Shown here one piece after another: positions 4,725 to 28,128 of a DNA stretch of 64,000 bases (the stretch's first letter is position 1; every line of letters starts with the position of its first letter). The notes under the pieces were generated by a model that worked only from the letters and a program-made list of their open reading frames with translations, was not told where the DNA came from and ran no database searches. Both the position numbers and the translations under genes were made by a program. The DNA comes from a virus: positions 12,445 to 76,444 of IMG/VR virus record IMGVR_UViG_3300025871_000005; one strand, 5' to 3'.

Positions 4725-5015
4725 TCAACCCAATTCGTAATTCTTTTCAAGATCATCCTTTGTGACATGAACATGTTCACCTTGTGGTGAAGCAATTGTT
4801 GCATCAGTGATACCAACCTCTTTCACAGTATACAATTCACCAGTTTCTTTATTTTTAATCTTCAATCCAGTTGACAGAATTGATTTCTTTTCACCATCTT
4901 TTGTTTTTGCATTGAACATCAAATCAACGCCTGAATTTTCAGCAAGTGAAGAAATTTTTCTATTCCACTCTTCTCGAATGAGATTGATCAGTTCACGTTC
5001 ACTAAGTTTCTTCAT
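4725..5015 (-). CDS. Hypothetical protein with N-terminal 'L..LIREE' leader
   Basis: MKKLSERELINLIREEW; beta-rich C-terminus; TACTTA upstream. Confidence 0.6.
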   Translation of the reverse strand: MKKLSERELINLIREEWNRKISSLAENSGVDLMFNAKTKDGEKKSILSTGLKIKNKETGELYTVKEVGITDATIASPQGEHVHVTKDDLEKNYELG

Positions 5016-5033
5016 AACAGTTAAGTATCAACT

Positions 5034-5912
5034 TCAATATTGAGCATTCAAATTCTGTTCAAATTCATGCATTGCATATGATTGCCAATCAATAACGTTA
5101 ACACCATTCGATTTCAATATATCAATGCCAGCAGTATCACGATATTGTGATAAATAGTACACTGTACCAACCTTCTTCATCGCCAGAAGTTTTGCACAAT
5201 TCTGACAAGGAGATAATGTAACAAACAGAATTGAATTTTTCAGGGGCTCCTGAGCCTTCATGATTGCATTCACTTCAGCATGTATACATCCACAAGCTCC
5301 AGGAATTGTTGTGTCACACTGATTTTTTGCACCAGAAATTCCACCATTGTATCCAACTGAAATTACACGTGTAAATTCATCATTGACAAAAACAGCACCA
5401 ACTTGTCGTCTGATACACGTTGAACGATCTCTAAAAGAGCAGGCAGTTTGCATATAGATTGATTGAAAAGTTGGACGAGACCATACACCAAAGTCATTAT
5501 TGTAATTCCTTTCAACTTGAACAAAATTTTCAGTTTTTCGCCAATTCATGAACTTAACTTTGAAACCTTTAGATCTGTAAAATTCTGTTGCCATTTTGTA
5601 CAGATTGAATTGCTCATCATCCAAAGGTGCATTCATGAATTCATAACATTTTTCACCATTCCAATATTCAACAAACAGATTTGGATGATATTCATCATAA
5701 CCTGGGTCTGCATTGTAACACATTCTCACAGATTTTACAGTCAAATATGATTTCAATTGTTCAATCCTCTTGTCATGATTGAATTCATGAAATTTCTTTT
5801 TTTCAAGTGTCAATTTACAATTTGCAGAACACACATTGTGTTGTGTATACAACTGTTTTTCACAATCTGTTTGCATAGGTTTCCCACAAACAACACAATT
5901 TTCTATATTCAT
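5034..5912 (-). CDS. dCMP deaminase with about 140-aa N-terminal Zn-finger-containing extension
   Basis: RSTCIRRQVGAV, GYNG, HAEVNAI, PCQNC; N-terminal CVVC...CSANC. Confidence 0.85.
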   Translation of the reverse strand: MNIENCVVCGKPMQTDCEKQLYTQHNVCSANCKLTLEKKKFHEFNHDKRIEQLKSYLTVKSVRMCYNADPGYDEYHPNLFVEYWNGEKCYEFMNAPLDDEQFNLYKMATEFYRSKGFKVKFMNWRKTENFVQVERNYNNDFGVWSRPTFQSIYMQTACSFRDRSTCIRRQVGAVFVNDEFTRVISVGYNGGISGAKNQCDTTIPGACGCIHAEVNAIMKAQEPLKNSILFVTLSPCQNCAKLLAMKKVGTVYYLSQYRDTAGIDILKSNGVNVIDWQSYAMHEFEQNLNAQY

Positions 5913-6442
5913 AATTGTTCCCTCAACTTTATGAAACGATTAATGAACAACTGTTCTGCCTCATGAGGCAATAATGGAACAATCACCTCTTTCACAGGCT
6001 GTGATTTGATATTCCAGTCATCATACGCAGAATATTGCATCAGATCTCTCACTTCTGCTGCAAACACTCTGTGATCTGCACTGTTTATGTCATCCTGATC
6101 AAAATTTTCAATATGAAATCTGTGATAGATTTCATCCATTAACACTTTTTCAACATTCCTGTATTCAGAAAACATTGATGTCATTTTGTAAGGTGTTGGA
6201 ATGTCAACTATGTATGCTTCTGACGCATCATGGAGCAGAGCAGCAAAACTGTTCACTGGATTTACATAATTTGAAACAAGAACACTGTGTTGTGCAACAG
6301 AATAGAATTGTTTTGTATGTCCTGAAAATCTGCACATATTTGATAATGCATGCGCAATGTCTTCAATATTGATGACACACTTTTTGGGTTCAAGTGGATT
6401 GAACAGATTTCCTGAGTATGTTATTATGTGCACATTAATCAA
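5909..6442 (-). CDS. HD-domain 5'-deoxynucleotidase (YfbR/YfdR-like)
   Basis: IEDIAHALSNMCRFSGH, YSVAQHSVLVS, LLHDASEAYIVDIPTPYK. Confidence 0.85.
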   Translation of the reverse strand: MINVHIITYSGNLFNPLEPKKCVINIEDIAHALSNMCRFSGHTKQFYSVAQHSVLVSNYVNPVNSFAALLHDASEAYIVDIPTPYKMTSMFSEYRNVEKVLMDEIYHRFHIENFDQDDINSADHRVFAAEVRDLMQYSAYDDWNIKSQPVKEVIVPLLPHEAEQLFINRFIKLREQL

Positions 6443-7022
6443 CTTTCAGCATAAAATTTGGATGATGTTGATGACATCTGGGTTCATACAGATCAGAACC
6501 ACCAACTTCAATTTCCTGATCTGATATGTTCTTTTTGTGAGTAAAGTGGGCATCTTCACCGCACACTGTGCAAACAGCTGTGCACTTTTCAATGTGTGTT
6601 GCCCACGGGAACATCTTTTCAATCTCTTTGAAAGGTTTACAACTTGATGACATGTCAAGTGATGACACAATGATATCAATTCCATTTCTGTACAGCCATA
6701 TCAATGCATCAGCAACATCTGGTATCATGAATGCTTCATCAACAGCAATTACATTTGGTTCAATTGAAGGATTTGATAGGTGTTCAAAAATGTCTTCACC
6801 AGTTTTTATTACAGTTGCAGGCCATTTGAAACCATTGTGTGTAACAACATCAGACGTTGAATACCGATCATCAATTGATGGTTTGTACACGACAATTGAT
6901 TTCTGTTGATATTTGCACTTTTCAAGTGCAGACATCAGATGGCTTGTTTTTGAACTAAACATTGGTCCAACAAACATTCTGAATGTATTATTTTTCATTC
7001 TTATCCTTTTTTGTTGAAACAA
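6435..7022 (-). CDS. tdk: Thymidine kinase
   Basis: GPMFSSKTS, KPSIDDRY, IAVDEAFM, CTVCG, YEPRCHQH. Confidence 0.92.
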   Translation of the reverse strand: MFQQKRIRMKNNTFRMFVGPMFSSKTSHLMSALEKCKYQQKSIVVYKPSIDDRYSTSDVVTHNGFKWPATVIKTGEDIFEHLSNPSIEPNVIAVDEAFMIPDVADALIWLYRNGIDIIVSSLDMSSSCKPFKEIEKMFPWATHIEKCTAVCTVCGEDAHFTHKKNISDQEIEVGGSDLYEPRCHQHHPNFMLKVD

Positions 7023-7539
7023 TTGTAAAAGGTTTTCTCACAGTTGAAATGTGTTTTTCAGAGATTGAAAGAGCTTTAATGAGCAAAATGACTGGATCTT
7101 TCACAGTTTCATACAACGCACACATTGCACCCAATGCAACATCTGATCCTGAACCAATTGATGTATACATTGATGTATCACTTAAAACACCAAAATCCTC
7201 TTCGATTGTGAACAACCTTCCTTTATACCCAACAATGATTGCGCCATGATTTTCACCAGATGCTTCATATTCATGTTGAGCATATATTCTCTTCAATGCA
7301 GGAATGAAATCACACACAAAGTATTCATTTGGATCATCTCTGTTATCTTCTGGTGGATCAAAACAGTATTGAAGAATTTGACCCATCCTGAATGATTGGC
7401 AAAATCCAAACAACATTTTTCCCTTCTTGAAAACTTTTGGGACAGTTATTGTTGATATTGCATCATTGATACCATTTGCTGATGCATCCCCAGCCAACCA
7501 AACATATTTTCCATCAGCATAACCAACTATACATGTCAT
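6988..7539 (-). CDS. HslV/proteasome-beta-like Ntn hydrolase
   Basis: N-terminal Thr (MTCIVG), AGD, PKVF, IGSG. Confidence 0.75.
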   Translation of the reverse strand: MTCIVGYADGKYVWLAGDASANGINDAISTITVPKVFKKGKMLFGFCQSFRMGQILQYCFDPPEDNRDDPNEYFVCDFIPALKRIYAQHEYEASGENHGAIIVGYKGRLFTIEEDFGVLSDTSMYTSIGSGSDVALGAMCALYETVKDPVILLIKALSISEKHISTVRKPFTIVSTKKDKNEK

Positions 7540-8510
7540 AAAGATTTCAAGCTCCTGTCAAACAACCCATTTTTCAGTTCTTGAATAATGTTTTCATTCA
7601 CAGATAATTTCTGAGCTTTGTGCATAAGCAATATTTGTATCATGTCATGCCAATATTCATGTTTTTCACTCTTTAACCAAGAATTGAAGCTGACAATATC
7701 AGCTTCTGATTTATAACGTTGAATAATCTGTTCTTCTTGAATCAATTGTTGAATTACATTATTTGTGATATTTGGCATTGCGTTCATAGGAATTGAACTA
7801 TATCCTGAATTTTTTGCAATTTTATCAAGCATTTCAAAATGCCTCTCATAAACATGGAGTGAATTGCTTATGTGCACATATGATCCCAATTCAACGCCAA
7901 GTTCATTTGCCAACATCTCTTGAAAGAATGTGAACGCAGGAACATCATATGATATTCCAAAAATGAGATCTGAACTTCTCATTGATACAATTTGGTGCAA
8001 TTTACCATCCCTAATGAAAAATTGCAACGTCAATGTGCATGGCACATCTTTCACAGCAAGCATACTGTCTTTTGGTGATCTTATATGAATAACAGCTCTC
8101 CTACTGTCAGGATCTCTCTTCAATTCATCAATAACATATTGCCATTGTGTCCAATCATGTTCAGCACCACAAATTCTGTCATGTGGTTTGAATATTCTTG
8201 AACCATAAGCACTGTTTGCAGTTACGCCATCGTCACTGATATTTGACCAAAACTGAGAATAGTTTGAAATCCATTCAGTTGAATTGTTTCCACTGATGTA
8301 CCAAAGAATTTCACCCATCATATATGATAATGAAAATTTTCGTTCTGGAATGAATAGCAGTCTATCTCTTGGATTTGTGATCACAAACTTGACGCCAAGA
8401 TGTTCTTTGATCTTCATTCCTCGCGGTTGACAAACATATTCTGGATTGTTTACCAATTTTGCCAATCCAGCAAATGCATCTGTGAATGATTTGTATGTGT
8501 GCTCTGTCAT
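7536..8510 (-). CDS. Thymidylate-synthase-family enzyme with dCMP-type Asp; probable dCMP hydroxymethylase or related C5-modifying enzyme
   Basis: GEILWYISG, DPDSRRAVI, DVPCTL (catalytic Cys), MRSSDLIFGISYD with Asp (7944-7946) where ThyA has Asn, SLHVYERH; start ATG 8510 after a GAGG RBS. Confidence 0.8.
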   Translation of the reverse strand: MTEHTYKSFTDAFAGLAKLVNNPEYVCQPRGMKIKEHLGVKFVITNPRDRLLFIPERKFSLSYMMGEILWYISGNNSTEWISNYSQFWSNISDDGVTANSAYGSRIFKPHDRICGAEHDWTQWQYVIDELKRDPDSRRAVIHIRSPKDSMLAVKDVPCTLTLQFFIRDGKLHQIVSMRSSDLIFGISYDVPAFTFFQEMLANELGVELGSYVHISNSLHVYERHFEMLDKIAKNSGYSSIPMNAMPNITNNVIQQLIQEEQIIQRYKSEADIVSFNSWLKSEKHEYWHDMIQILLMHKAQKLSVNENIIQELKNGLFDRSLKSL

Positions 8511-8557
8511 ATTTTCCTCAAACAGATTGTACAGAATGTCATCAAATTGTTCATATT

Positions 8558-9538
8558 TCAAATCGAAGACAACATTTTGATCTGTTCCCAATTTGTTGTG
8601 TACCAATCAATTGTCATATCAATTCCAGTTTTTACATCAACAATTGGCTCATACTTCAGATCATTTTTGATTTTTGATATGTTTGCAAGTGTATGTTTCA
8701 CATCACCCATCCTTGTTGGCGCCATGATCATACCCTTGTTTGGCAATCTCTGATTGATGAGCCACAAAATTTCATTATTGCTTATTCTTGTCCCAGTTGC
8801 AACGTTGTATACATCACCATTGAATATGTTGGCAGATTTCCCAGCAAGAATGAGCGCATGAACAACATTGTCAACATGACACATATCTCTGCTCTGTGTA
8901 CCATCTCCATCAAATCTCAATTTTTTTCCAAACTTTATTGCAGTCAACCATGCTGAAATTGCAGTTGAATATGGAGATCCACCCAACTGATTTTTGCCAA
9001 AAACATTGAAAAATCTCATTGATGCAATGTTGCATTTGTAATAGTTTGCATACATCACAGCATAATCTTCAATTATTGACTTTTGCAATGCATATGGTGA
9101 AACTGGGTGTTTTGTATCAGTTTCTGATTGTCCAAGAACTTTTCCATATTGATCAACTGTCGCTCCACCATAAACTGATGAACTTGATGCAAATATCAGT
9201 TTTGTTCTGTTACCAGCTTTTCTCAATGCTTCAAAAAGTTTCAATGTTTTTGTTACATTCACATCATTTGTTTCATATGGATACTCAACGCTGTATGAAA
9301 CTCTTGGCATTGCTGCAAGGTGAAAAATTGTGTCATAAACACCATGCTCAACATTGTCAACAATGTTTTTGTCAGAGAAATCATTTGCATACAATGTTCC
9401 CATTCCTGTTGGCACAAATTCTTTATGACCATTTGAAAAATCATCAACGCCATCAACGTTGAGACCAATCTTTATACATTCATTTGCAAGATTGCTACCA
9501 ATAAAACCAGCCACTCCAGTTATCAGAATATTTTTCAT
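8558..9538 (-). CDS. NAD-dependent NDP-sugar epimerase/dehydratase (extended SDR)
   Basis: GVAGFIG, HLAA, ASSSSVYG, YALQK, RFFNVFG, GDGTQSRD. Confidence 0.9.
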   Translation of the reverse strand: MKNILITGVAGFIGSNLANECIKIGLNVDGVDDFSNGHKEFVPTGMGTLYANDFSDKNIVDNVEHGVYDTIFHLAAMPRVSYSVEYPYETNDVNVTKTLKLFEALRKAGNRTKLIFASSSSVYGGATVDQYGKVLGQSETDTKHPVSPYALQKSIIEDYAVMYANYYKCNIASMRFFNVFGKNQLGGSPYSTAISAWLTAIKFGKKLRFDGDGTQSRDMCHVDNVVHALILAGKSANIFNGDVYNVATGTRISNNEILWLINQRLPNKGMIMAPTRMGDVKHTLANISKIKNDLKYEPIVDVKTGIDMTIDWYTTNWEQIKMLSSI

Positions 9539-9786
9539 ATTGCGTATATCTTTTCTAATGAACTTTCATCAATAAATTTGACACGTTTATCAAATGAATT
9601 TGTGCATTGTTGACTTCCGCTAAATGACCAGATATAGTAATCATCATCAAACTTTGTTATGATTACATTTTCATCCCTATGTATCAAATTATGCAATTCA
9701 AAATCACTATTCAATGGAATAAAATTTTCAGTATCCCATGCTTGTTGCTTTGATATGTTAACCTTTACCAACATTTCCATAACCAT
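9535..9786 (-). CDS. Hypothetical protein
   Basis: 83-aa ORF tiled in the operon. Confidence 0.4.
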   Translation of the reverse strand: MVMEMLVKVNISKQQAWDTENFIPLNSDFELHNLIHRDENVIITKFDDDYYIWSFSGSQQCTNSFDKRVKFIDESSLEKIYAI

Positions 9787-9955
9787 CTCTGTACCATCCA
9801 GAACCCTTCAGAATAAATCCTGATTGCTGATTGATTAATCTCTTCAATGAATTGTGTCCACATTTCTCACAGTGAATCAAGGGCTCTTCTGTTATCTTCT
9901 GTTCTGCCTCAAATTGAAGGCCACAATTTTTGCAAATATATTCATATGTCATCAT
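9758..9955 (-). CDS. FmdB-family zinc-ribbon protein
   Basis: YEYICKNCG...CEKCG...FILKGSGWYRDGY. Confidence 0.85.
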   Translation of the reverse strand: MMTYEYICKNCGLQFEAEQKITEEPLIHCEKCGHNSLKRLINQQSGFILKGSGWYRDGYGNVGKG

Positions 9956-10160
9956 TCACCTCTGGAAGCATTACGCCTTTGCAAAGTTTCACAAATTTTG
10001 ATTTTTCATCATCTGAAAGGTTGTGATTGTGACTCATGATGTCATGAATTAGGCATTCAATTGCACTATTCCACCATTCATTTGTCAACTTTTCAACACA
10101 ATCTTTACAAAATGATTCACCTGAAAGCAACTCTTTGTTGCATCTGCATGTGTGTGCCAT
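9942..10160 (-). CDS. Hypothetical Cys-rich protein
   Basis: CRCN...FCKDC; tiled in the operon. Confidence 0.45.
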   Translation of the reverse strand: MAHTCRCNKELLSGESFCKDCVEKLTNEWWNSAIECLIHDIMSHNHNLSDDEKSKFVKLCKGVMLPEVNDDI

Positions 10161-10175
10161 AACACAATTTACGTA

Positions 10176-11468
10176 TCACAATAGATCATATTTCTTCATG
10201 AACTGTTCTGTTGTATGTTCATATGAAGCATACTCTCTGACAAATTTTTGAAGTTTTGTCACATCAGGATTTGTATCAATCAGCCTTCCCAACACATCAC
10301 CAATGTCTGAAAGATCTGGTTTTCCTCTCAATTCATCTGGCCAATTGACTGCATCAAAATAGACCTTATATTCATACAGATTTGGGTAAAGTGGTATTGC
10401 ACCAAATTCAACAGCCTCAAGTGAGGCATATCCTCCATTTGTGTCAACAGTATAGAACGCACCAACAATATCACAATTTTGTGACAAAAACCTGTATTCA
10501 TCCCTATTCAGAGCAGTATCAACCAATTTGACATATGCCGGACACAATTCAGCAATTTCATCATTACTGATCTTCTGATTTGGATTTCCTGCCAAAATTA
10601 TGAAATCTTGTCGTGTCTTCCACAATTCTGGAACCAGTTCAAACAGAAACTTGCCACAATTTGTGTAATCGCTTGATCTTCCCAACCCGCCAACTCTGTT
10701 TGGCACCCAAACAATCTTTTTTCCAGATTTTCGCAATTGTTCAAATTGTTTCAAAAAGCGCACATTGTTGACATCAACCGGTTTTCTGATCTCCTCTGTT
10801 GAATAACCATCCTTCCAAACATCAGATTTTTTCATGATGTTCTCAACAATATGTTGTTGATAATCTTTGCCAAGATCATCAAAAAAGATCTGTTCCATTG
10901 TTTTGCAATGCCACAAACACACATCAGCTTTCAAATTTCCAACAACTTGACTATGCCAATATTCAACCTCTTTTGGAACGATTCTTGCTGTTGGGCTGTC
11001 AAGAAAGTGTGTTTGCACGATGAACATTGGTTGATAATGGTATTCAAGTTGAAACAACGTTTTAAGATTTCCTACAAACATTGGATCATTTACATACACA
11101 TGTGTGTATCTCTCACCAACATTGTCCCAATGCACAAAATCGAGAGCTTTTTTGTAACTTTCATATGGAAAATCATACCTTGTCCTGAGTGCAGAGGGTG
11201 CAATTGGAACACTCAACAGTTTAACACGTTTGAACAACTGCTGACCCAACAGTTTCCACAAAAGTTCAGCAGGTTTTTCACCCTCTGCACAATCTTTCAC
11301 ATCTGGAACAAGAATGTCAACATACAGTTCAGGATTCAACTTCAACATATTGAGCAATTTTGTTGCCATCATTTGCCAATTGCTGTCTGCTGTGAAAACA
11401 AATTTGCCCTGTTCATTGTACAGTGAAAGTTGAAGTTGCCAAAGAATCATTTTTTTCATAATTGTCAA
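10176..11468 (-). CDS. GT-B fold glycosyltransferase (candidate DNA glycosyltransferase)
   Basis: VWVPNR and GGYASLEAVEFGAIPLYPN resemble the GT-B donor-binding motif; no signal peptide or TM. Confidence 0.7.
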   Translation of the reverse strand: MTIMKKMILWQLQLSLYNEQGKFVFTADSNWQMMATKLLNMLKLNPELYVDILVPDVKDCAEGEKPAELLWKLLGQQLFKRVKLLSVPIAPSALRTRYDFPYESYKKALDFVHWDNVGERYTHVYVNDPMFVGNLKTLFQLEYHYQPMFIVQTHFLDSPTARIVPKEVEYWHSQVVGNLKADVCLWHCKTMEQIFFDDLGKDYQQHIVENIMKKSDVWKDGYSTEEIRKPVDVNNVRFLKQFEQLRKSGKKIVWVPNRVGGLGRSSDYTNCGKFLFELVPELWKTRQDFIILAGNPNQKISNDEIAELCPAYVKLVDTALNRDEYRFLSQNCDIVGAFYTVDTNGGYASLEAVEFGAIPLYPNLYEYKVYFDAVNWPDELRGKPDLSDIGDVLGRLIDTNPDVTKLQKFVREYASYEHTTEQFMKKYDLL

Positions 11469-11477
11469 TTCTCCGAT

Positions 11478-12041
11478 TCAGTCCAAAATATAACTTTGTG
11501 TTTCAGAGAGTGCCCACAATGGAAATACTTCCAACATCTTTTCTCTTATCTCCTGGAGCTCTCTCTCAATATTTTCGTCATCAACAAACAATTCCAACCA
11601 TTTGCATCCAGAAATCATTCTGAAGTCATCGTAATGTCTCTGAATACTGTTGAGACTGTTTTCGTCTATTGATTGATCAAGATCATCACGTATTCCACTG
11701 AATGACTTTCTTTTGCAATGAATGATCAATGTATCAAGTTTAGAATATCCCTCATCAAGTGCCATGATTGCATCGATGTCTGTTTCCCTATTGAAATGTT
11801 TTGAATATGCATATTCACAAGGAAATTCACGATCAAATATGACACTGCTGCCTGTCTGTCTAATGAAATCAAGCAAATATTGTGATGAAACCCTTATGTT
11901 TGTCAAGAATCTATCCTGACCATGCAGGAAGCTTCCATGTTCACTTGATGCCTTGAAAACAGGAATATTGAGAACTCTTGAAAGTTGATGGGCAATGTTT
12001 GTTTTACCACACATATCAGCGCCAACAAAAATTATGATCAT
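11478..12041 (-). CDS. dNMP kinase-like P-loop protein (candidate modified-dCMP kinase)
   Basis: GADMCGKT Walker A; VIFDR motif of the thymidylate kinase fold. Confidence 0.75.
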   Translation of the reverse strand: MIIIFVGADMCGKTNIAHQLSRVLNIPVFKASSEHGSFLHGQDRFLTNIRVSSQYLLDFIRQTGSSVIFDREFPCEYAYSKHFNRETDIDAIMALDEGYSKLDTLIIHCKRKSFSGIRDDLDQSIDENSLNSIQRHYDDFRMISGCKWLELFVDDENIERELQEIREKMLEVFPLWALSETQSYILD

Positions 12042-12045
12042 TGTG

Positions 12046-12483
12046 TCACCATACTACAATTTTACGTCCTGATTTTACAATCCTATTTGCAACATTTTTT
12101 GCGATTGAGATCACATGGTCAAATCTTCCAGTTTTGTCAACTGATTCATTTTCAACATTTGTTTCAAACGTGATTGGAATTGGAACTGGATTTCCTTGCA
12201 GTCTGATACACTGATTTAACACATCAATCTGTGTGCATAAACGTTTCATGAGTTCTGTCTTTGCGCTGTTCAGAACATCAATGATACAATTTTCTGGATC
12301 ACTGTTTGACATTCTGAATTCAATACACTTGTGTTCAACATCTGTCAACTCTGCTATCCAAACGGTATCCTTGTAAAACTGCAAGCAGATCTCAATCTTG
12401 GCGTCACTGTACATGTACATTCCATCACCCAAATGCGTGAAAACCAAACCTGCAAATTCTGTTGTTTCTTGTGTGTTGTTCAC
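12046..12483 (-). CDS. Hypothetical protein
   Basis: 145-aa ORF tiled in the operon. Confidence 0.5.
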   Translation of the reverse strand: MNNTQETTEFAGLVFTHLGDGMYMYSDAKIEICLQFYKDTVWIAELTDVEHKCIEFRMSNSDPENCIIDVLNSAKTELMKRLCTQIDVLNQCIRLQGNPVPIPITFETNVENESVDKTGRFDHVISIAKNVANRIVKSGRKIVVW

Positions 12484-13794
12484 TTATTCACCCAATGTTT
12501 TCAATTTCCAACTTGTTGTTGATGCACCAAAATCATTCTTTTCAACCTCTGCTATGCACAATGTCAAATTCTTGATCACGTTCTTATCACTCTTCCAACC
12601 CCAAATGTTCATGCGTTCAATTTTTGATTTTGAACCCATGACTTCAGCACTCAGGAATTCTTTTCCAGTCTTTGTCCTTTTCAGATTTGAACCATTGACA
12701 ACAAACCAAACGACCTCCTTCTCACCCTGCTCAAGTTCATCAACAGATTTGATGCCTTTTGTTTCAAGTGTACCCCAGATTTCATCATCAATGATCATTC
12801 TTACATCAACTGTCCCAAGAATTTCTGCTTGAAAATCTGCCAATTCACGTTTTGTCCATTCACCCGGCAACTCTTCTGCATCATACTTTTGTGCATACTC
12901 ATCAATGAGTCGCAAAAAATTGTTGTAACCCTGATACTGATCACGTTTTGAAACCTTTTTGATTTCATCCTTGTGCACAATCATAACATCATGCATATGT
13001 TTGTATGATCTGAACAGCTTTCCTGAGCCAACAACATCCAATGAACCGAATGCTCCCAACTTAATGAGTGCATCAAGTGCTTTTGAGTTGAATTTTGATG
13101 GTCGCCAACTTCCATCAGCATTCCAAAACATATCTTTGAAATCAGTGATTGGACGCATTGACAACAATTCTTCAACTGCACTCTCACCAACTCCCTTACA
13201 TGATAGGAGTGATGGCATGAATTTTTTTCCTTCAATGCATGTCCAACCTTTTCCTGCATATTGCACATCAATTGGAACAATCTTGTAACCAAGTTTTCTG
13301 ATTTCACCAATTGCTGTTGCTTTATCATCAGGATTGTTTGACATGCTCTCAAGATAGGTTGTCAACCATTCCTTTTCATAGTGTGTCAGTAGCCATGCAC
13401 ACATATATGAATCAATTGCATAAGCGATTGCATGGCTTTTGTTGAACCCGTATGAAGAATAGAACAATATATTCTGATATGCTTGTCGTGCTGTCTCTTC
13501 TTTGATACCCTGACTGACAGCACCATCAACAAATTGATCTTCCATTTTCTTTGCTTCTGCTATGGCAGCCTCACCCTTTGAAAGATCACGTTTCATAATT
13601 GCTCTACGAACGTTATCACATTGGTCTTTGGGGAAAAGCCCAATGATTTCGGCCAATTCCATGACTGACTCTTGGAAAATTAAACAATTATGTGCGAGAA
13701 TTCCATTTGCAATGAAATTATGATTCCCAGTTTGAATATCATATGTCACATCTTTATTGATGTGTTTTATAGATTTCACTTTAGTGTAAATCAT
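12484..13794 (-). CDS. dnaE: DNA polymerase III alpha fragment 4 (split-intein C part plus fingers/HhH/OB)
   Basis: 36-aa IntC ending ILAHN, then CLIFQESVM, YGFNKSHAIAY, KGVGE. Confidence 0.9.
   Translation of the reverse strand: MIYTKVKSIKHINKDVTYDIQTGNHNFIANGILAHNCLIFQESVMELAEIIGLFPKDQCDNVRRAIMKRDLSKGEAAIAEAKKMEDQFVDGAVSQGIKEETARQAYQNILFYSSYGFNKSHAIAYAIDSYMCAWLLTHYEKEWLTTYLESMSNNPDDKATAIGEIRKLGYKIVPIDVQYAGKGWTCIEGKKFMPSLLSCKGVGESAVEELLSMRPITDFKDMFWNADGSWRPSKFNSKALDALIKLGAFGSLDVVGSGKLFRSYKHMHDVMIVHKDEIKKVSKRDQYQGYNNFLRLIDEYAQKYDAEELPGEWTKRELADFQAEILGTVDVRMIIDDEIWGTLETKGIKSVDELEQGEKEVVWFVVNGSNLKRTKTGKEFLSAEVMGSKSKIERMNIWGWKSDKNVIKNLTLCIAEVEKNDFGASTTSWKLKTLGE
13687..13794 (-). mobile_element. 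Split intein 2, C-fragment
   Basis: KVKSI...VTYDIQTGNHNFIANGILAHN followed by Cys+1. Confidence 0.9.
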
Positions 13795-14771
13795 ATTGGT
13801 AAAACTCTTAATTCATTTGGATATATGTCCATTTTTGATGCCCATACTCTTTGTAAATCGTAACCTTCTTTTATGGCTCGTTTTGTATGTGATATATCAA
13901 TATTGAATTGTTGTTTCATTTTATCTGTTAATTCAAAACATTCTTTGTTTCCATGCCAATAATCACCATCAAATTCAATGATTAGATTTAGACTTTTGAC
14001 ATAAAAGTCATATTCATGACCACTTTCTTGTAGTTTGAACTTGTGTACAACGTTATCTTGACCATAAAAATCACACAATATTTTATAGAATTGCAATTCT
14101 TGATTTGATGTTGTTTGAGGTGCAGAACGATATTTTACACCTTCTTTAACTGATAAACAATGCTGCCTATATTTTTCTTCGTCATGTAATTGATAATGTG
14201 CAAGAAAATTTCGATTTCTTTTGAAAACTTTACCACAAATTTCACACGTAACATTTCGTTGTTCTTGATCAGCACTACAATATGATTTATGAGACCTTAA
14301 AGAAAGATTTGTTTCAAATTTTTTGTGACATTTTTCACATTCAAAATCACCAAATTTCACAATATTTTCACGTTTTTTACCTAAATTTTGATTTGCTTTC
14401 CATTCAGGCGTTATTGTTCTTCCTTTGTACAAAATTGATCTTAATTCATAAGCACATTTTTTCGAACAACATTTACGTGATTTTCTACTATTTGAAACAA
14501 TAAATGTCTTATTGCACATTTGACATATTATTTCAGTTCGCGCTTCTTTCCATTCAATTGTTTCTTTTTTGCTTTTAAGATAAAGAGACTTACAATATTT
14601 TGAACAAGTTTTTACACGTTCACATCTTGTTTCACAACCGCAAATAACACATACACCCTTTTTTAATGTTCTAGAATGCGCATCTTTACAAGCTCTTGAA
14701 CAATATTTTGAATCAATTTTTTTTGAAAGATATTCTATATTACAATGTACACATCGTTTACTAAATTTCAT
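13791..14771 (-). CDS. Free-standing homing endonuclease, Vsr/DUF559-like (EDxHD type), with Cys-repeat and C2H2 Zn fingers
   Basis: Repeats CxxC...CSxxC; SNQE...YDFYV...IIEFDGDYWHG...D; lies between IntN2 and IntC2. Confidence 0.8.
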   Translation of the reverse strand: MKFSKRCVHCNIEYLSKKIDSKYCSRACKDAHSRTLKKGVCVICGCETRCERVKTCSKYCKSLYLKSKKETIEWKEARTEIICQMCNKTFIVSNSRKSRKCCSKKCAYELRSILYKGRTITPEWKANQNLGKKRENIVKFGDFECEKCHKKFETNLSLRSHKSYCSADQEQRNVTCEICGKVFKRNRNFLAHYQLHDEEKYRQHCLSVKEGVKYRSAPQTTSNQELQFYKILCDFYGQDNVVHKFKLQESGHEYDFYVKSLNLIIEFDGDYWHGNKECFELTDKMKQQFNIDISHTKRAIKEGYDLQRVWASKMDIYPNELRVLPI

Positions 14772-15045
14772 AACTCACAATCTCATCATCTTCCATTAAA
14801 TCACCAGCACATACCCAACCTCTCTTTGTCATAATTTTATGTTCTGGTGTGCATTTTAATGTCCCTGTTTCAGTTTCTATCATAATGAGATCTTGAGTTC
14901 CATTACAAACTTTTGCCTTAACAATGTCTTGCTCATAGTGTTGAGTTTTTTCATTGAATGATATGATCTCATCACCAATTTCTATATCACTTAAACTTTT
15001 TTGTTGCAAATTTGCCAATAGAATTAGTGTATCACCTGTGAGACA
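14761..15045 (-). mobile_element. Split intein 2, N-fragment (94 aa)
   Basis: Block A CLTGDTLI; block B CTPEH. Confidence 0.9.
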
Positions 15046-15393
15046 ATTATATGTTTCTCCCAACACTTTTTCAAAGAGTGGATGCCCCCATTCAAACTTT
15101 TCACCCTTCTTTGCCTTGAGATAGATCTTGTCAACATTTGCAGCCAAGGGTCCAGGTCTATAGATTGCTGTCAACACAGCAATGTCAACAATTGACTTTG
15201 GCTCTGCTTGTCTGAACAGTCTCTGCGCACCCTTTGATGTCAACTGAAATATCCCAGGGAATGCTTCACCTTTGTAGACATCAAATGTTTTCTGATCATC
15301 ATAATTGTTTGCATCAGGATGAAGATTCTGTTCATACCACTTCTTGATATCAAGAAATTCTGGTTGTTCTGTTGTAATATTTCTTATTTTCAT
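14761..15393 (-). CDS. dnaE: DNA polymerase III alpha fragment 3 plus split-intein N part
   Basis: GIFQLTS, AIYRPGPL, GETYN then CLTGDT...CTPEHKIMTKRGW. Confidence 0.9.
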   Translation of the reverse strand: MKIRNITTEQPEFLDIKKWYEQNLHPDANNYDDQKTFDVYKGEAFPGIFQLTSKGAQRLFRQAEPKSIVDIAVLTAIYRPGPLAANVDKIYLKAKKGEKFEWGHPLFEKVLGETYNCLTGDTLILLANLQQKSLSDIEIGDEIISFNEKTQHYEQDIVKAKVCNGTQDLIMIETETGTLKCTPEHKIMTKRGWVCAGDLMEDDEIVSYEI

Positions 15394-15655
15394 CCAATAT
15401 CACCCTTTTGAAATCATCATAGTTGAGTGTTTCCAAATCTGGAAATCTTGTCATCTTTTCTGGTTTGGTATAAAAATTGGGTGCCCATATGTCATCACCC
15501 AATCTGTCACTGACATACACAAACACAAGCCAACCACCATCACAATAAACTCTTAAACCAATCCATTTTTTGTCAACATAGTCTGTTGTTCGAATAACAG
15601 AATTCCACATTTCCATCAACTGTTCACTATTGAATTTATTTGAATTTCCAATCAT
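15350..15655 (-). CDS. Hypothetical protein (island inside dnaE)
   Basis: 101-aa ORF overlapping the fragment 3 start. Confidence 0.5.
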   Translation of the reverse strand: MIGNSNKFNSEQLMEMWNSVIRTTDYVDKKWIGLRVYCDGGWLVFVYVSDRLGDDIWAPNFYTKPEKMTRFPDLETLNYDDFKRVILDENKKYYNRTTRIS

Positions 15656-15881
15656 TGAAAACTTTCATCAATTGTTCAACGTTTTTGCACTCACTCATTT
15701 CAACAAAAAATTGATGATTATATTTGAATAACCAATGATTTAGAATGTGAATTCTTGAATATGACATCAGAATTCTACTGTCGTCATACATTTTCGGAAT
15801 TTCCGGAAAAAATACAACTTTATGATCTCCCCAAACAAAACTGCCATAACCAGCTCTGTGCACCTTCAATTTGAGATTCAC
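15636..15881 (-). CDS. Hypothetical protein (island inside dnaE)
   Basis: 81-aa ORF with ATGA overlap. Confidence 0.5.
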   Translation of the reverse strand: MNLKLKVHRAGYGSFVWGDHKVVFFPEIPKMYDDSRILMSYSRIHILNHWLFKYNHQFFVEMSECKNVEQLMKVFNDWKFK

Positions 15882-16138
15882 AATAAGCCAAATCTTTCCC
15901 TGAATTCATCAGTGTTCAGACTGCACAATCTTGTCATAGTTTCCCAATCCCACAATGTCATGACATCAGTGCTCAGATCGTTAACCAAAAAGCCATCATG
16001 ATCAGAAATTGTTCTGTTAACAATTCGTGGATTCCACAGCAGAACACAATTTCCTGAATACATAAATGCCCAAAGTCCAGTTTTGTACACTTTGAGTGTG
16101 TCAATTTTGGATGACAACAAAATTTCAACTGTGTTCAT
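15878..16138 (-). CDS. Hypothetical protein (island inside dnaE)
   Basis: 86-aa tiled ORF. Confidence 0.5.
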   Translation of the reverse strand: MNTVEILLSSKIDTLKVYKTGLWAFMYSGNCVLLWNPRIVNRTISDHDGFLVNDLSTDVMTLWDWETMTRLCSLNTDEFRERFGLL

Positions 16139-16274
16139 TCAATAAACCAATAATGATTTTCATAATTCTTGGGCGCTTTTTTGATATCATCTTGACTGTG
16201 TGCTCTTCACACTGTGTGAGATCATTTCCTGATATGGATCCAATGTTGTCTCTGTATATTCTCAACGTTAACAT
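16125..16274 (-). CDS. Possible 49-aa hypothetical protein
   Basis: Manual translation MLTLRIYRDNIG...LNEHS fills the gap between neighbours. Confidence 0.3.
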   Translation of the reverse strand: MLTLRIYRDNIGSISGNDLTQCEEHTVKMISKKRPRIMKIIIGLLNEHS

Positions 16275-16277
16275 AAT

Positions 16278-16532
16278 TCATTCCTGTTCACAATCATCTG
16301 GAAGTTTTACCAACATCATTCTCACAAGTTCAATCTTTTCATCCACAACCTTCAACACTGCAATTGCAGATCGCAATCTCTTCTCTAAATCATCTGTTGA
16401 CAATTTCAGCTCACCATTCTGTGCAGATATCTCTGACAACTGTTCAATTGTGTACCTGATCAAACCTGATATATCTGTTGGTCTCAATGAGTTCATGCTC
16501 TGATTATAAAACCCAACTGTGACAGTATTCAC
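16278..16532 (-). CDS. Hypothetical coiled-coil protein
   Basis: 84-aa ORF. Confidence 0.45.
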   Translation of the reverse strand: MNTVTVGFYNQSMNSLRPTDISGLIRYTIEQLSEISAQNGELKLSTDDLEKRLRSAIAVLKVVDEKIELVRMMLVKLPDDCEQE

Positions 16533-16556
16533 ATATACTTACAATTAAGTTTTAGT

Positions 16557-17699
16557 ATGCAATATTTCAAAAGTGACAAAGAGATTGGTAAACTTTTCAA
16601 AGAATATATGACTGATTTTTTGTATTTGACTGAAATTTTGAACGAAGAATACGCTGATAAATTCAGGGAATTTGATAATGAAATCAAAACAATAATAATC
16701 ATTTACAACAACGTCAGTAGTGGTAAAGGATTGTCAACAATTGACAGATCTAAAAAGAGATACAATTTTTACAAACAATTGCTAAATTTGTCTGATGAAC
16801 AGGCAGAAGCATACAAAGAGTTCAATCTTAGTGGTCGACTCGATCAAAAACAGATCACTGTGCTCAAACCTGTGTTCACAAAATTGTTTGATATGCTATC
16901 TGGAAAAGATCCAAAAGGTTTGGCTCATGAATTGTATAACACTGTGTTTCATGATGAATTCATAAAGGCTGAAAAACAGAAACAAAAATTCTTGAAAAAG
17001 AGCAGCAAGAACAGTGGGGGTCGTCTTGATCTGATTGCTTTTGGCAGTGAAAGAAATCTGCCAGAATTGGATAACAAATTTGAGCAACGGCTGCACACTG
17101 CAATCAGCAGTCATCTTGATCATGCTGGTATGCAAATTCAGTATGTCACTGCAATCAGGAACATCCTGAAACAGGGACTGTATGATGATGTGTTCACACG
17201 ACCAAATGTTCAAAAAGTTTACAGGGGAATGGGCGTCAAATATGAATGGTTGAAGGCTGCTATTGGTGCCAAGAAGGGTGAGGTTGCAATCAAGGATGGA
17301 CACATTGAAAAACGTTTCACATGGCACCCAAAAAAGAATGCAGGAAGTTGGACTAAGAGTCTGAGAACAGCAAAACGTTTTGCCAATGAAAACAGTAATA
17401 TGAAAAGTGGAACGGTTCCCATTGTAATGGTTGCCTACACTGATGAGAACAGTGATGATGTTTTCCTTGATGCAAGATTGTGGTACAAAAACATCAGTGA
17501 TGAATATTCAAATGAGCGTGAAGTGATATCACTCAGTGATATCAAGGTTGGTGAAATCATGTGGTTTGATGCAGACCCAGAGAACTCTGGGATTTATCCA
17601 TGGGAACAGGATAAAAAGCAAAAAATTGTTGATAAACTTGCCAATATTCCAAAACAATCATTCAGCAAAGTGTTGAAAAAACATGCAGGGAAGAAATGA
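16557..17699 (+). CDS. ADP-ribosyltransferase-like protein (R-S-ExE), paralog 1, with N-terminal helical extension
   Basis: LDLIAFG, VYRGM, GSWT, NEREV; TACTTA upstream. Confidence 0.7.
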   Translation: MQYFKSDKEIGKLFKEYMTDFLYLTEILNEEYADKFREFDNEIKTIIIIYNNVSSGKGLSTIDRSKKRYNFYKQLLNLSDEQAEAYKEFNLSGRLDQKQITVLKPVFTKLFDMLSGKDPKGLAHELYNTVFHDEFIKAEKQKQKFLKKSSKNSGGRLDLIAFGSERNLPELDNKFEQRLHTAISSHLDHAGMQIQYVTAIRNILKQGLYDDVFTRPNVQKVYRGMGVKYEWLKAAIGAKKGEVAIKDGHIEKRFTWHPKKNAGSWTKSLRTAKRFANENSNMKSGTVPIVMVAYTDENSDDVFLDARLWYKNISDEYSNEREVISLSDIKVGEIMWFDADPENSGIYPWEQDKKQKIVDKLANIPKQSFSKVLKKHAGKK

Positions 17700-17703
17700 T
17701 CAT

Positions 17704-17940
17704 TCATGGAAGATTGTGAACAATATTCAGTATTGAACTGAATTGATACTGATCAAACCTGTAAAAGAGCACACAAACATTGTATGGTTCACAACTCAAT
17801 CTTGAAATGAATTTCAATCCATTCTGTTCAACTGACGCATTCATATCATAATATGACATCTGCTTTGTTACTGACCTGTTGTGAGATATGTAACCCTTCT
17901 TTTCAAGTTCATTCTCAACAATTTTTTGTATTGTTAACAT
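17704..17940 (-). CDS. Hypothetical protein (island inside dnaE)
   Basis: 78-aa ORF. Confidence 0.45.
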   Translation of the reverse strand: MLTIQKIVENELEKKGYISHNRSVTKQMSYYDMNASVEQNGLKFISRLSCEPYNVCVLFYRFDQYQFSSILNIVHNLP

Positions 17941-18169
17941 CGCGCTTCAACCTATTCAACACTGTTCTGTAATCATTGATGATGAATTGTGTATGTTTCA
18001 TTCCTGTCAACGTACGTGTATCATATACGTCCATATGCCAAACATGATCAACAACATCTTCATAGATTTCTTTCAATAAAAAATCATGATGGCCATTCTC
18101 AAAACGTTGATTGTATTGAAACTTTAACGTACCTTTACGATACACAATCATTTTTATTGTTATCATCAT
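17915..18169 (-). CDS. Hypothetical protein (island inside dnaE)
   Basis: 84-aa ORF; ATGA overlap with the fragment 2 stop. Confidence 0.45.
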   Translation of the reverse strand: MMITIKMIVYRKGTLKFQYNQRFENGHHDFLLKEIYEDVVDHVWHMDVYDTRTLTGMKHTQFIINDYRTVLNRLKRDVNNTKNC

Positions 18170-19020
18170 GGCGTCAAGATTTCATCATCATCCTTCAATT
18201 CATTAGCAAACACTTCACCTCTTTGTGTCATAACCAATTGATCTGGTAGCAATCTCATCACTGTACCATCCTCAAGTTCAATCTGTTTGATGCCTCCTTT
18301 ACCCTTTATGACCTTTTCAACTGTATTTTCAATTAGTCTCATTGTTTCAAGACCTAACAGGTCATATTTAATGATTCCATTTGGTTCAAGCGTTTTTCCA
18401 CCAACACCTTCGACCCAAGGCGTTTGAGGTTCACCACCATTTGTAATGAGAGGCATTTCTCCCATTGCATCATCCATAATGACAACACCTCCAGCATGCC
18501 GACCCAATGATCTCTGCTCTTTAAAGAGAATTTCCATACTCTCTGCAACCTCAGGATGCCTCTCAATAAAACTTCTGAAACTTTCTGAATACTTCATTGC
18601 ATCCTCAAATTTGAGAACAAAAAGGTTTTTATCATCACCATGTTTCATGGTTGCCTTTCTGACCTCCTTTTCAACAGTTTTTGTTGCCTCATTTGCTTCT
18701 TCAAATGGAATTCCATAAAACTTTGAAATATCTTTCAGGAGCGTTTTCACTTTGAACGTGTTGATATTTGAAATTGGAATAACATTGTTCATTCCAAACT
18801 TTTCTCTCAATACTTCAAGAACTTTATCACGATCACTGATGTCGCAATCTATGTCTGGTGCACCTGAATTATGTGTCAAATACCAATCAGAATTTCCTTG
18901 TTTACAAAAAAATGTATGATCGACGTCAACAGTAATATCATACAAAATTTGTTCTTCATCATATTCACACAATTCAACGCTTGTAATTATGTTGTTTGAC
19001 AAGATATTTTGTTGCTCCAT
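18166..19020 (-). CDS. dnaE: DNA polymerase III alpha fragment 2 (IntC, catalytic palm, degenerate Hint tail)
   Basis: YLTHN then SGAPDIDCD (catalytic Asps), GRHAGGVVI, KYDLLGL; likely start ATG 19020. Confidence 0.9.
   Translation of the reverse strand: MEQQNILSNNIITSVELCEYDEEQILYDITVDVDHTFFCKQGNSDWYLTHNSGAPDIDCDISDRDKVLEVLREKFGMNNVIPISNINTFKVKTLLKDISKFYGIPFEEANEATKTVEKEVRKATMKHGDDKNLFVLKFEDAMKYSESFRSFIERHPEVAESMEILFKEQRSLGRHAGGVVIMDDAMGEMPLITNGGEPQTPWVEGVGGKTLEPNGIIKYDLLGLETMRLIENTVEKVIKGKGGIKQIELEDGTVMRLLPDQLVMTQRGEVFANELKDDDEILTP
18868..19020 (-). mobile_element. Split intein 1, C-fragment (51 aa)
   Basis: ITSVE...LYDITVDVDHTFF...LTHN followed by Ser+1. Confidence 0.88.
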
Positions 19021-19903
19021 AATTTCTATTTTCAATATTTGGTATAACACTATACAAATTCTTTTCTTTAAGAAAAGAATAAAAATCATTCATATAAATA
19101 ACTTTAATGTTAACATGTTGTTCATCAATTACACGTTGTCTAACATCAGAATTTGAGTTGATCAATAATGAAAAATTATTTGACTCAGATTTTCTTACGC
19201 CTTTCAATTCAATATAACAATTCAACTCATTATTCCAAAAATCAGGCGTATAATGTCTTATTTGATTATCAACCAATATCTCAAATGTTTTTGGTTCATA
19301 TTCATAAGCAATATTTGAATATTGCAAATATCTTGCATAATCAGCTTCAAACGCAGATTTGAAATAATGATTACCCTTTATATCAATTCTGTATCCACTT
19401 CTTCCATTGACATGAATATGAATTTTTCCATTTGATTGTGCTATCATTTGACAATTTCTAGAACAAAAACGCTTTCGTTCATAAGCTGACTTTTTGATTT
19501 GAAATGTCTTATTACAAATTTCACATTGTTTTTCCAATGATGTTCTCTTAGAAAGAGATGAACATTGCGGAGAACAATATTTTCTATTACAAGAAATGTT
19601 TACATCAAAATTTTTCCCGCAATGTTCACATTTTAAGCTTTTTTTATCACTTGACAATCGTTGTGATTGATTGATATTTTTACATTCTTTTGAACAAACC
19701 TTTCTAGCTGATTGTGATTTGTAAACTCGCACCTCTTTTCCACAAATGATACATTGTTTAACAATCTTTTCACCATTTTCAGGACGCCTATTCCATGCAT
19801 TTTTACATTTTGAACCACAAAAACGTCGTTTTTGAATTGAGTAATTTTTGTTTGTATCATCAATGATAAAATCACAATTACAATTTACACATTTTCTAAT
19901 CAT
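18974..19903 (-). CDS. Free-standing PD-(D/E)xK homing endonuclease with Cys repeats
   Basis: Repeats CxxC...CSxxC; YEYEPKTF...YTPDF...YIELKG; lies between IntN1 and IntC1. Confidence 0.78.
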   Translation of the reverse strand: MIRKCVNCNCDFIIDDTNKNYSIQKRRFCGSKCKNAWNRRPENGEKIVKQCIICGKEVRVYKSQSARKVCSKECKNINQSQRLSSDKKSLKCEHCGKNFDVNISCNRKYCSPQCSSLSKRTSLEKQCEICNKTFQIKKSAYERKRFCSRNCQMIAQSNGKIHIHVNGRSGYRIDIKGNHYFKSAFEADYARYLQYSNIAYEYEPKTFEILVDNQIRHYTPDFWNNELNCYIELKGVRKSESNNFSLLINSNSDVRQRVIDEQHVNIKVIYMNDFYSFLKEKNLYSVIPNIENRNYGATKYLVKQHNYKR

Positions 19904-20171
19904 TAGCTATTATCTGATCATCTTTACATAAGTGTTCAGCCTCAACTAATTCAAATTTTCCATTACGAATAATTGGCCAACGATGTTTTCTAGAACAAAC
20001 AATAGTTTGTCCATTCACAATGAACTTAACATACTGCAATGTTTTTGTTTCAAATTTGTCAAGAATTTTTCTTGTTTCTCCACTTCCACCAATAATTTCA
20101 TCCCCAATATTAAGTTCTGAAATTGATTTATTGCCAATTGGTGTTCGAACTAATGTTTCACCTGGTAAACA
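19896..20171 (-). mobile_element. Split intein 1, N-fragment (91 aa)
   Basis: Block A CLPGETLV; block B CSRKHRW. Confidence 0.88.
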
Positions 20172-23941: not shown

Positions 23942-23977
23942 ATTGTTAACTGTACAATACAATTGATCAGAAGTTCA

Positions 23978-27750: not shown

Positions 27751-28128
27751 TCAATATCCATTATTAATGCGTTCAACATTGATTGAACCCTTTTGCATAT
27801 ATTTTTCATACAGTTCATCCATTGAAACTCCTGTAAGAATTGCAATCTCTATGAAATAGTGCAACGCATCACTCAATTCTTCAATGTATGCATCACGATC
27901 AAAATTTTTCACATCAGTTGCTCTGTGATCTTTTGAATTCTTCAAGTGCTGATTTGCTTCAAAAAGTTCATGCATACATTCATGAGTAATGTCTTTGACA
28001 ATTTTTTGTCCACTTTTTGCAGTTATGTCAACAGGAAATTCTGTGAATGAACGTTTTTCCTGAAGAAGCCTCATAAAAGCTTCCTGTTGACACCACATCA
28101 TTTTCAATTTATCACTGTTGGTTTCCAT
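27751..28128 (-). CDS. All-alpha dimeric dUTPase/dCTPase (T4 gp56/MazG-like)
   Basis: ELFEA, YIEELSDALHYF, KGSINVERINNGY. Confidence 0.75.
   Translation of the reverse strand: METNSDKLKMMWCQQEAFMRLLQEKRSFTEFPVDITAKSGQKIVKDITHECMHELFEANQHLKNSKDHRATDVKNFDRDAYIEELSDALHYFIEIAILTGVSMDELYEKYMQKGSINVERINNGY

Follow-up and report, generated by a model that had tools for sequence, protein, structure and literature searches.

In phage T4, cytosine is exchanged for glucosylated 5-hydroxymethylcytosine (5hmC) through the pyrophosphatase gp56, the hydroxymethylase gp42, the kinase gp1 and alpha- and beta-glucosyltransferases (AGT and BGT). The DNA of RB69-type phages carries arabinofuranosyl-5-hydroxycytosine, formed via a flavin-dependent homologue of thymidylate synthase (TS) with a D169N substitution and a ribulose-5-phosphate route (PMC13326640). 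In RB69, DLP3 and RL38J1, three genes lie side by side (PMC13326640 Table 1): those for a nucleotide kinase resembling thymidylate kinase (TMK), for a first glycosyltransferase (GT) of the GT-B fold and for the TS homologue. Here we analyse a module with these three types of gene in a 64,000-nucleotide stretch of DNA (the window) from the IMG/VR virus record IMGVR_UViG_3300025871_000005. The window corresponds to bases 4880-68879, read on the reverse strand, of a 269.5 kb virus record (G000) with an estimated completeness of 74%; all genes discussed lie on the window's minus strand. The module suggests, with a probability of roughly 0.65, that cytosine would be replaced by 5hmC before replication and then glycosylated, following the T4 scheme with different proteins.

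The logic of the T4 pathway recurs in the window as a pyrophosphatase, a TS-fold predicted hydroxymethylase with a signature identical to that of gp42, a kinase and a GT-B transferase. A gp42-like enzyme occupies the same slot in some sister phages, and the pyrophosphatase has a C-terminal motif in common with gp56. The anti-restriction strategy of T4 is known; what differs here is the kinase and GT families, which are not those of the T4 kinase and glucosyltransferases. The window TS homologue is 27% identical to gp42 and belongs to a long subfamily resembling MilA and the phage G enzyme. The kinase, of TMK/deoxynucleoside kinase (dNK) fold, is distinct from gp1; the GT is GT4-like and does not match the Pfam families of AGT and BGT. 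The module belongs to a giant phage whose replicative polymerase is DnaE, and is associated with a UDP-xylose synthase (UXS) and an epimerase. Because of these two associated enzymes, the sugar is probably not glucose, unlike in T4.

The kinase, GT-B and TS triad is the same as in RB69, DLP3 and Thanatos, which have arabinosyl-5-hydroxycytosine (arabinosyl-5hoC), and in RL38J1, which has galactosyl-5hoC (PMC13326640, PMC12838424), and the kinases are homologous. The first GTs of DLP3 (gp79) and RB69 (gp46:47) share their PDB templates (MshA, 6kih) with the window GT (PMC13326640 Table 1). However, the window TS homologue lacks D169N, and its base is predicted to be 5hmC rather than 5hoC. The pentose of RB69-type phages is a furanose from ribulose-5-phosphate, whereas any pentose in the window would be a pyranose from decarboxylation of UDP-glucuronic acid (UDP-GlcA). 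A preliminary description of the window had cited RB69-like phages as carriers of arabinosylated cytosine; this analogy is outdated, the RB69 base being a 5hoC derivative made by a different route (PMC13326640).

Two further systems are close to the window. In the metagenomic clusters of subclass II described by Pyle et al. (bioRxiv 10.1101/2023.12.21.572611), which are of the methyltransferase/TET (MT/TET) type, a GT lies beside an NDP-sugar epimerase and has 5hmC as its acceptor, as proposed here, and the same survey records GT-B genes beside TS homologues. In subclass II, a methyltransferase and a dioxygenase form 5hmC once the DNA has been replicated, whereas the window would make it before replication by the TS homologue; and the epimerase of subclass II is a dedicated partner, whereas that of the window is a backbone gene. 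The module also has a linked UXS. Among cultured phages, the closest TS is gp319 of Bacillus phage G, which has the same signature (34% identity by tblastn, 38% in the alignment). In the gp309-gp319 region of phage G (L004, 225-242 kb), this gene lies near those for a thymidylate kinase, a dCMP deaminase, a glycosyltransferase, sugar-nucleotide enzymes and DnaE. Annotated as alpha-glucosyltransferase-like, the transferase of phage G is not related to that of the window, and the donor genes there encode a glucose-1-phosphate thymidylyltransferase and a HAD phosphatase. Phage G may likewise hypermodify cytosine.

The gene module and its conservation

The longest open reading frame (ORF) of the TS homologue covers 7536-8606, with a TTG start at 8606; the probable start is the ATG at 8510, which has GAGGA 5 bases before it. 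Residue numbers are counted from the TTG at 8606. The protein matches Pfam Thymidylat_synt (PF00303, E 2e-31), its catalytic cysteine C190 corresponds to C146 of ThyA, and its best relative in the PDB is the CMP hydroxymethylase MilA (E 3e-42). We aligned it with T4 gp42, verified to make 5hm-dCMP, and with RB69 gp48, verified to make 5-hydroxy-dCMP. D221 (in GISYDV) occupies the site of N177 of E. coli ThyA and aligns with RNDY of T4 and VSDV of MilA, in agreement with the preliminary description of a TS-family enzyme with Asp at the substrate-specificity site. The site of ThyA L143 is also acidic (D187 in KDVPC; SDFMC in T4). N177D leads to cytosine specificity and an acidic L143 site to a product other than methyl (Lee et al., PMC13326640, sections 24 and 28), the acidic residue giving access to water and hence hydroxymethyl instead of methyl (section 24). 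R169 and S211, at the sites of ThyA Arg126' and Ser167, form a deoxyribose-type pair: the ribose preference of MilA is associated with Ala176 and Lys133, and deoxyribose-specific enzymes have Ser and Arg (PMC5175136). D213 corresponds to ThyA D169, which is retained. An Asn at this site is diagnostic for flavin-dependent 5-hydroxy-dCMP synthases and is found in all verified 5hoC synthases (PMC13326640 section 28). The motif reads MRSSD in the window, MRSxD in T4 and PS2, and MRSQN in RB69, KARL-1, Marfa and Acj9. The complete signature is the same as that of T4 gp42, and RB69 gp48 differs from it by D169N.

Judged by these residues, the TS homologue is very probably a dCMP hydroxymethylase. 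RB69-type 5hoC chemistry was rejected for it because of the retained D169, and a role as dTMP synthase because of N177D together with the presence of ThyX. Since the window encodes ThyX, a TMK, a thymidine kinase (TK), a dCMP deaminase and a dUTPase, the TS homologue is not required for dTMP; with dTMP coming from ThyX, it would be freed for cytosine chemistry.

The GT, a protein of 430 amino acids (aa), has no match in Pfam (E 0.01), PHROG or NCBIfam and none by sequence in the PDB. Its AlphaFold model, built from 32 homologues, has a mean predicted local distance difference test (pLDDT) score of 93 and shows the two Rossmann domains of a GT-B fold. Foldseek matched the model to sucrose-phosphate synthase, MshA, BshA, glycogen synthase and PimB' in the PDB, with E values down to 2e-11 and a probability of 1.00 to sucrose-phosphate synthase, MshA, BshA and PimB'. 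The protein contains no hydrophobic segment, so that it remains, as first described, a soluble GT-B glycosyltransferase. The suggested structural comparison with the T4 glucosyltransferases recovered the GT-B fold, but AGT and BGT are absent from the top 50 Foldseek PDB matches; their families PF11440 and PF09198 gave no match to the GT, nor any in the record, where the search had no working positive control. Nor is there a match to PF00534 (Glycos_transf_1), whereas the transferases of a distant glycan cluster in the same genome do match this family. At least 294 homologues of the GT were found, all unannotated and many on contigs of 100-350 kb. Among its structural neighbours in BFVD, the first-GT proteins of Muldoon and KARL-1 rank 8th and 14th. 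Profile comparisons with phage G gp313 and individually with RB69 gp46 and gp47 were not significant, and we regard the likeness to the RB69-type first GT as an analogy, with no claim of homology. The isoelectric point (pI) was uninformative as a hint of DNA binding, being 5.7 for the window GT, 6.1 for T4 AGT and 9.1 for T4 BGT.

The kinase gene adjoins that of the GT. Its product gave an AlphaFold2 (AF2) model with pLDDT 90, for which thymidylate kinases, deoxyadenosine kinase and YorR were among the top Foldseek matches; a profile search against the PDB matched the same fold. The family is homologous to RB69 gp45, KARL-1 gp207 and Acj9 gp087 (hhalign probability 96.7%, E 4e-10). A Pfam thymidylate kinase is encoded elsewhere in the window (Table 1), so the module enzyme, of TMK/dNK fold, is indeed the second dNMP kinase that had been noticed. 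In a groundwater variant (run X6; one contig, depth 3), a perfect palindrome of 20 bp, GAGTGCCCACGTGGGCACTC, is inserted at window position 11507, close to the 3' end of the kinase gene.

Outside the module, the all-alpha NTP pyrophosphatase shows a 42-residue local BLASTP match to T4 gp56 (E 5e-7, pairwise), in keeping with its earlier designation as gp56-like. Its gene is located directly upstream of DnaE in three relatives (L017, L033, L046). Because the window encodes a separate trimeric dUTPase, the pyrophosphatase is not required for dUTP and would be free for the role of a dCTPase.

Table 1. Coordinates of the module genes and of the related genes in the window.
Feature	Position	Strand	Basis
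dCMP deaminase with N-terminal extension, pyrimidine pool control	5034-5912	-	PF00383, E 9e-18
TS-family predicted dCMP hydroxymethylase (5hm-dCMP synthase)	7536-8510	-	PF00303, MilA match, active-site signature
UDP-sugar 4-epimerase (WbgU/WbpP/TviC-like), extended short-chain dehydrogenase/reductase (SDR)	8558-9538	-	Pfam Epimerase, E 9e-47; best matches WbgU, WbpP, TviC
Small ORF (83 aa)	9535-9786	-	no family matches; no tblastn match in related loci
Small CxxC...CxxC zinc-ribbon ORF (65 aa)	9758-9955	-	read from sequence; Zn_ribbon_8 gene in same slot of P0030 locus
Small Cys-rich ORF (72 aa)	9942-10160	-	sequence
Soluble GT-B (GT4-like) glycosyltransferase of an unannotated family, predicted hmC glycosyltransferase	10176-11468	-	AF2 model, Foldseek, synteny
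TMK/dNK-fold nucleotide kinase (187 aa), predicted kinase for modified dCMP	11478-12041	-	AF2, Foldseek, hhalign
UDP-glucuronate decarboxylase (UXS), candidate donor-pathway enzyme	22979-23962	-	human UXS1, E 3e-83
All-alpha NTP pyrophosphatase, candidate dCTPase (T4 gp56 role)	27751-28164	-	dUTPase_2 PF08761, E 3e-6; phrog_12184, E 1e-16
Canonical thymidylate kinase (first kinase)	28957-29580	-	PF02223, E 4e-8
ThyX	29567-30439	-	PF02511, E 5e-16
Trimeric dUTPase	36072-36569	-	PF00692, E 1e-36, at G000:32407-32799 (window 36081-36473)

The window comes from an uncultured giant wastewater phage, replicated by DnaE, whose DNA polymerase gene the module adjoins. Nearly identical DNA is present in runs from activated sludge, wastewater, groundwater and rivers, which come from at least 10 studies. 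Searches of cultured phages with a 6 kb region at the nucleotide level and with the GT gave no matches, and DnaE is at most 29% identical to that of cultured phages, leaving no close cultured relative. In about 30 diverged giant-phage contigs the usual gene order is DnaE, kinase, GT, epimerase, TS and an HslV-like protease; the order was also seen in other assemblies (L017, L055, L056 and the P0030 locus). Such recurrence in diverged loci indicates clustering beyond chance. A TS gene lies within about 6 kb of a GT homologue (36-51% GT identity) in 26 of 27 IMG/VR loci, and in the 27th the contig ends just past the epimerase gene. The GT is a fixed part of the module in a wide range of diverged phages. 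The genes share one orientation and are tightly packed, on which the earlier term "one operon" is based; promoter and terminator consensus scans returned counts at chance level.

Every TS neighbouring the GT in these 26 loci has the hmC signature xDxxC...MRSxD...D. Two subfamilies were found in the slot: a long form resembling MilA and the phage G enzyme, about 50% identical to the window TS, and a short form whose motifs (SDFMCT, MRSND) are close to those of T4 gp42. The swap of hydroxymethylase types at a fixed position is good evidence that dCMP hydroxymethylation is the selected function of the module. A different arrangement follows the kinase in L074:5680-9025, L076-78, L082, L084, L098 and L114, where the slot holds another 347-aa protein (no Pfam match) and an extra SDR instead of the window GT family, suggesting that these relatives have exchanged the transferase while its position stayed fixed.

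From the folds, active-site signatures, gene order and conservation we infer the catalytic steps, the acceptor and the donor of a pathway that would proceed as follows. The NTP pyrophosphatase would deplete dCTP to dCMP, which the TS homologue would hydroxymethylate with methylene-tetrahydrofolate while ThyX supplies dTMP. The gp45-like kinase would phosphorylate hm-dCMP, a host NDP kinase would complete hm-dCTP, and the phage DnaE polymerase would incorporate it. After replication, the GT would move a sugar from a UDP-sugar to the hydroxymethyl group of hmC in DNA, and the DNA would be shielded against restriction and CRISPR nucleases. The T4-like logic of cytosine replacement before replication, already part of the preliminary description, gains from the joint presence of the NTP pyrophosphatase, the dCMP-hydroxymethylase-type TS, a dedicated kinase and ThyX for dTMP.

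Candidate sugar donors

Confirming its first assignment as an NDP-sugar epimerase, the enzyme next to TS has WbgU, WbpP and TviC as relatives and is closest to 4-epimerases of UDP-N-acetylhexosamines (UDP-HexNAc) and their uronates, namely UDP-N-acetylglucosamine (UDP-GlcNAc), UDP-N-acetylgalactosamine (UDP-GalNAc) and UDP-N-acetylglucosaminuronic acid (UDP-GlcNAcA). A small Thr is present at the gatekeeper site of WbpP Ser306. The automatic names of its homologues are mixed and indecisive. The proposal that this epimerase is a dedicated part of the pathway did not hold. An orthologue (43-56% identity) lies beside DnaE in 79 IMG/VR loci, and 40 of these are without TS, GT and kinase within 10 kb; in 12 such records, a search of the whole record found no TS homologue anywhere. 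The epimerase is a backbone gene of a wider phage group and a possible, not a dedicated, donor-tailoring enzyme; a role as dedicated partner of the GT was rejected on the basis of the 40 loci.

The UDP-xylose synthase named in the preliminary description was found as such: its match to human UXS1 (2b69, 4gll) extends over residues 9-325, and the next family follows at E 3e-28. An orthologue (45-59% identity) is present in nine of ten module-bearing relatives, always upstream of DnaE, which it directly adjoins in L021, L027, L034, L037 and L056; the 11 kb distance in the window is due to the splitting of DnaE by inteins and endonuclease genes. Counting the window's own record, UXS occurs in 10/11 module records and in 0/12 TS-less relatives (Fisher's test, p = 1e-5, a value that ignores kinship). 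As the TS phages form one clade by DnaE identity, this pattern probably reflects one gain and one loss through clade inheritance. A marker GT of the glycan cluster is present without UXS in five records (G002, G012, G014, G016, G018), four of which are TS-less relatives. The fifth, G002, speaks against a pentose, having the module and the glycan cluster but no UXS; its epimerase is divergent and rearranged. No SIS-domain arabinose-5-phosphate isomerase was found in the 269.5 kb record (74% complete), so that the RB69 route would not be the source of any pentose.

If the DNA is glycosylated, there is close to an even chance that the donor sugar is a pentose, either xylose made by the phage UXS or, following 4-epimerisation, L-arabinopyranose. 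Only slightly less probable is a galacto-type hexose, HexNAc or hexuronate provided by the WbgU-like epimerase, and other sugars account for the remainder. The specific versions differ in their source: in one, the phage would convert UDP-GlcA through UXS to UDP-xylose and optionally to UDP-L-arabinose; in the other, the epimerase would draw on host UDP-sugars and UXS would serve other glycans. For the pentose speak the association of UXS with the module, its position abutting DnaE in several relatives, the presence of the glycan-cluster marker in records that have no UXS, and the lack of the SIS isomerase. For the hexose-type sugars speak the nearest relatives of the epimerase with the Thr at the WbpP Ser306 site, the retention of the module in G002 without UXS, and the experimental finding that published GT and epimerase pairs put hexose (Hex), HexNAc and hexuronic acid (HexA) on 5hmC in E. 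coli (bioRxiv 10.1101/2023.12.21.572611). Both versions have to contend with enzymes whose donor specificity is not readable from their sequences, a phyletic pattern that is not phylogenetically independent and an epimerase that is not dedicated to the module, and either one, taken as the specific account, is doubtful. The phage-made pentose donor of the preliminary description thus keeps the support of the UXS distribution, but is weakened by G002, by the probable origin of the pattern in one or two evolutionary events, by the epimerase and by a distant glycan cluster that could draw on the same sugars.

Alternative readings

Several observations weigh against glycosylated 5hmC in the DNA. 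A second cluster with eight glycosyltransferases and a UDP-glucose/GDP-mannose dehydrogenase-family (UGDH-family) gene is located at G000:C1:191000-209500, outside the window and about 130 kb from the module. It comprises at least six GT4-type and two GT2-type transferases and (L015, L016) also two S-adenosylmethionine (SAM) methyltransferases (FkbM, Methyltransf_24), a third SDR and a PD-(D/E)XK nuclease, and its conservation extends to related giant phages. The cluster could use UDP-GlcA and UDP-xylose and would then be an alternative consumer of UDP-xylose. To this are added the backbone status of the epimerase and the probable single gain and loss behind the UXS pattern. The modelled fold of the GT leaves its acceptor unspecified and does not identify it, actinophage GTs are its top viral structural neighbours in BFVD, and its profile comparison with the RB69-type first-GT family by hhalign is not significant (probability 1.3%, E 0.04). 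The substrates of the kinase and the pyrophosphatase are assigned only by analogy. Finally, in one relative (L019/L052), kinase and GT lie beside the glycan cluster and other SDR genes, with no TS within 10 kb. This sole exception to the synteny, L052:7134-18000 on a 283 kb ENA contig, has the kinase and a 54% identical GT next to three other SDR genes, a Lon protease and glycan-cluster GTs, and the region contains no DnaE. As for the cluster itself, its UGDH-family protein (L015:11982-13013, G000:194981-196012) is 343 aa long, with N-terminal and central domains and no room for the usual C-terminal UDP-binding domain; its relatives are likewise short (290-359 aa).

On such grounds the DNA might contain plain, unglycosylated 5hmC, with the GT-B, epimerase and UXS serving virion or cell-surface glycans together with the eight-GT cluster. 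We consider this unlikely. In about 30 diverged loci the GT has a nucleotide kinase on one side and an hmC-type TS on the other, far from the glycan cluster; it was found in none of the 40 epimerase loci that lack TS within 10 kb, 12 of which are TS-free over the whole record; and its family differs from those of the cluster GTs. A less probable variant would have the GT act on the mononucleotide, the kinase phosphorylating glycosyl-hm-dCMP and DnaE incorporating a pre-glycosylated dCTP analogue. The pairing of kinase and GT even in the single locus without a nearby TS fits this variant, as does the retention of an extra, homologous kinase by RB69 and DLP3 although a gp1-type kinase handles 5ho-dCMP; moreover, Lee et al. 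could not reconstitute the first arabinosylation on DNA, nor distinguish a nucleotide from a DNA acceptor (PMC13326640 section 26). Most improbable is a TS product other than 5hm-dCMP, whether 5-hydroxy-dCMP as in RB69, 5-methyl-dCMP as in XP12 or hydroxymethyl-CMP for a small-molecule nucleoside as with MilA. MilA is indeed the closest solved relative, and the kinase, GT and TS triad is otherwise known from 5hoC phages (PMC13326640); but the retained D169 contrasts with the Asn of all verified 5hoC synthases (section 28), the acidic residue at the L143 site speaks against a methylase, the Ser and Arg in place of MilA Ala176 and Lys133 point to a deoxyribose substrate (PMC5175136), and T4 gp42-like enzymes take the same slot in sister phages. 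We favour replacement of cytosine by 5hmC followed by its glycosylation in DNA as the likelier outcome for this phage.

Surroundings of the module and implications

The polymerase gene of the window is interrupted: over 12484-21719, DnaE is broken into several ORFs by intein fragments and genes for HNH/zinc-finger endonucleases. Where relatives keep DnaE intact (1200 aa), the polymerase gene directly adjoins UXS or the pyrophosphatase. In a Tara Oceans relative (L017:1473-2694), genes for HhH-GPD and Fapy-type DNA glycosylases lie immediately upstream of those for the pyrophosphatase, DnaE and the modification module. Between the thymidylate kinase and the NTP pyrophosphatase, at window 28335-28964, lies a gene for an adenine methyltransferase of the MT-A70 family, and the phage DNA may also bear N6-methyladenine (m6A) as a second layer of modification. 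In two metatranscriptome libraries from wastewater (X11, X17), contigs span parts of GT, TS, TK and DnaE within window 5000-13000 at 95-100% identity; they are compatible with expression in the environment, and carry-over of DNA is possible. For the 'moraphage' lineage, core glycosyltransferases have been named, with no TS, DnaE or epimerase (PMC12619734), and no link of that lineage to this phage could be established.

If the proposed pathway is correct, glycosyl-hmC DNA would be a property of a widespread clade of uncultured, DnaE-replicating giant phages found in wastewater, groundwater, rivers and the ocean with hundreds of sequence variants. Cytosine replacement of the T4 type would then extend far past the Straboviridae, and two unannotated protein families, the GT-B and the gp45-like kinase, would have a function. 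The DNA of such phages would resist restriction enzymes and Cas nucleases, and glycosyl-hmC can bias the preparation of metagenomic libraries and nanopore base-calling; the enzymes of the module would be useful in labelling 5hmC. The most interesting part is the candidate possibility of a pentosyl-hmC derived from UDP-GlcA. If the link to UXS is real, both this base and its donor route would be known from no other phage.

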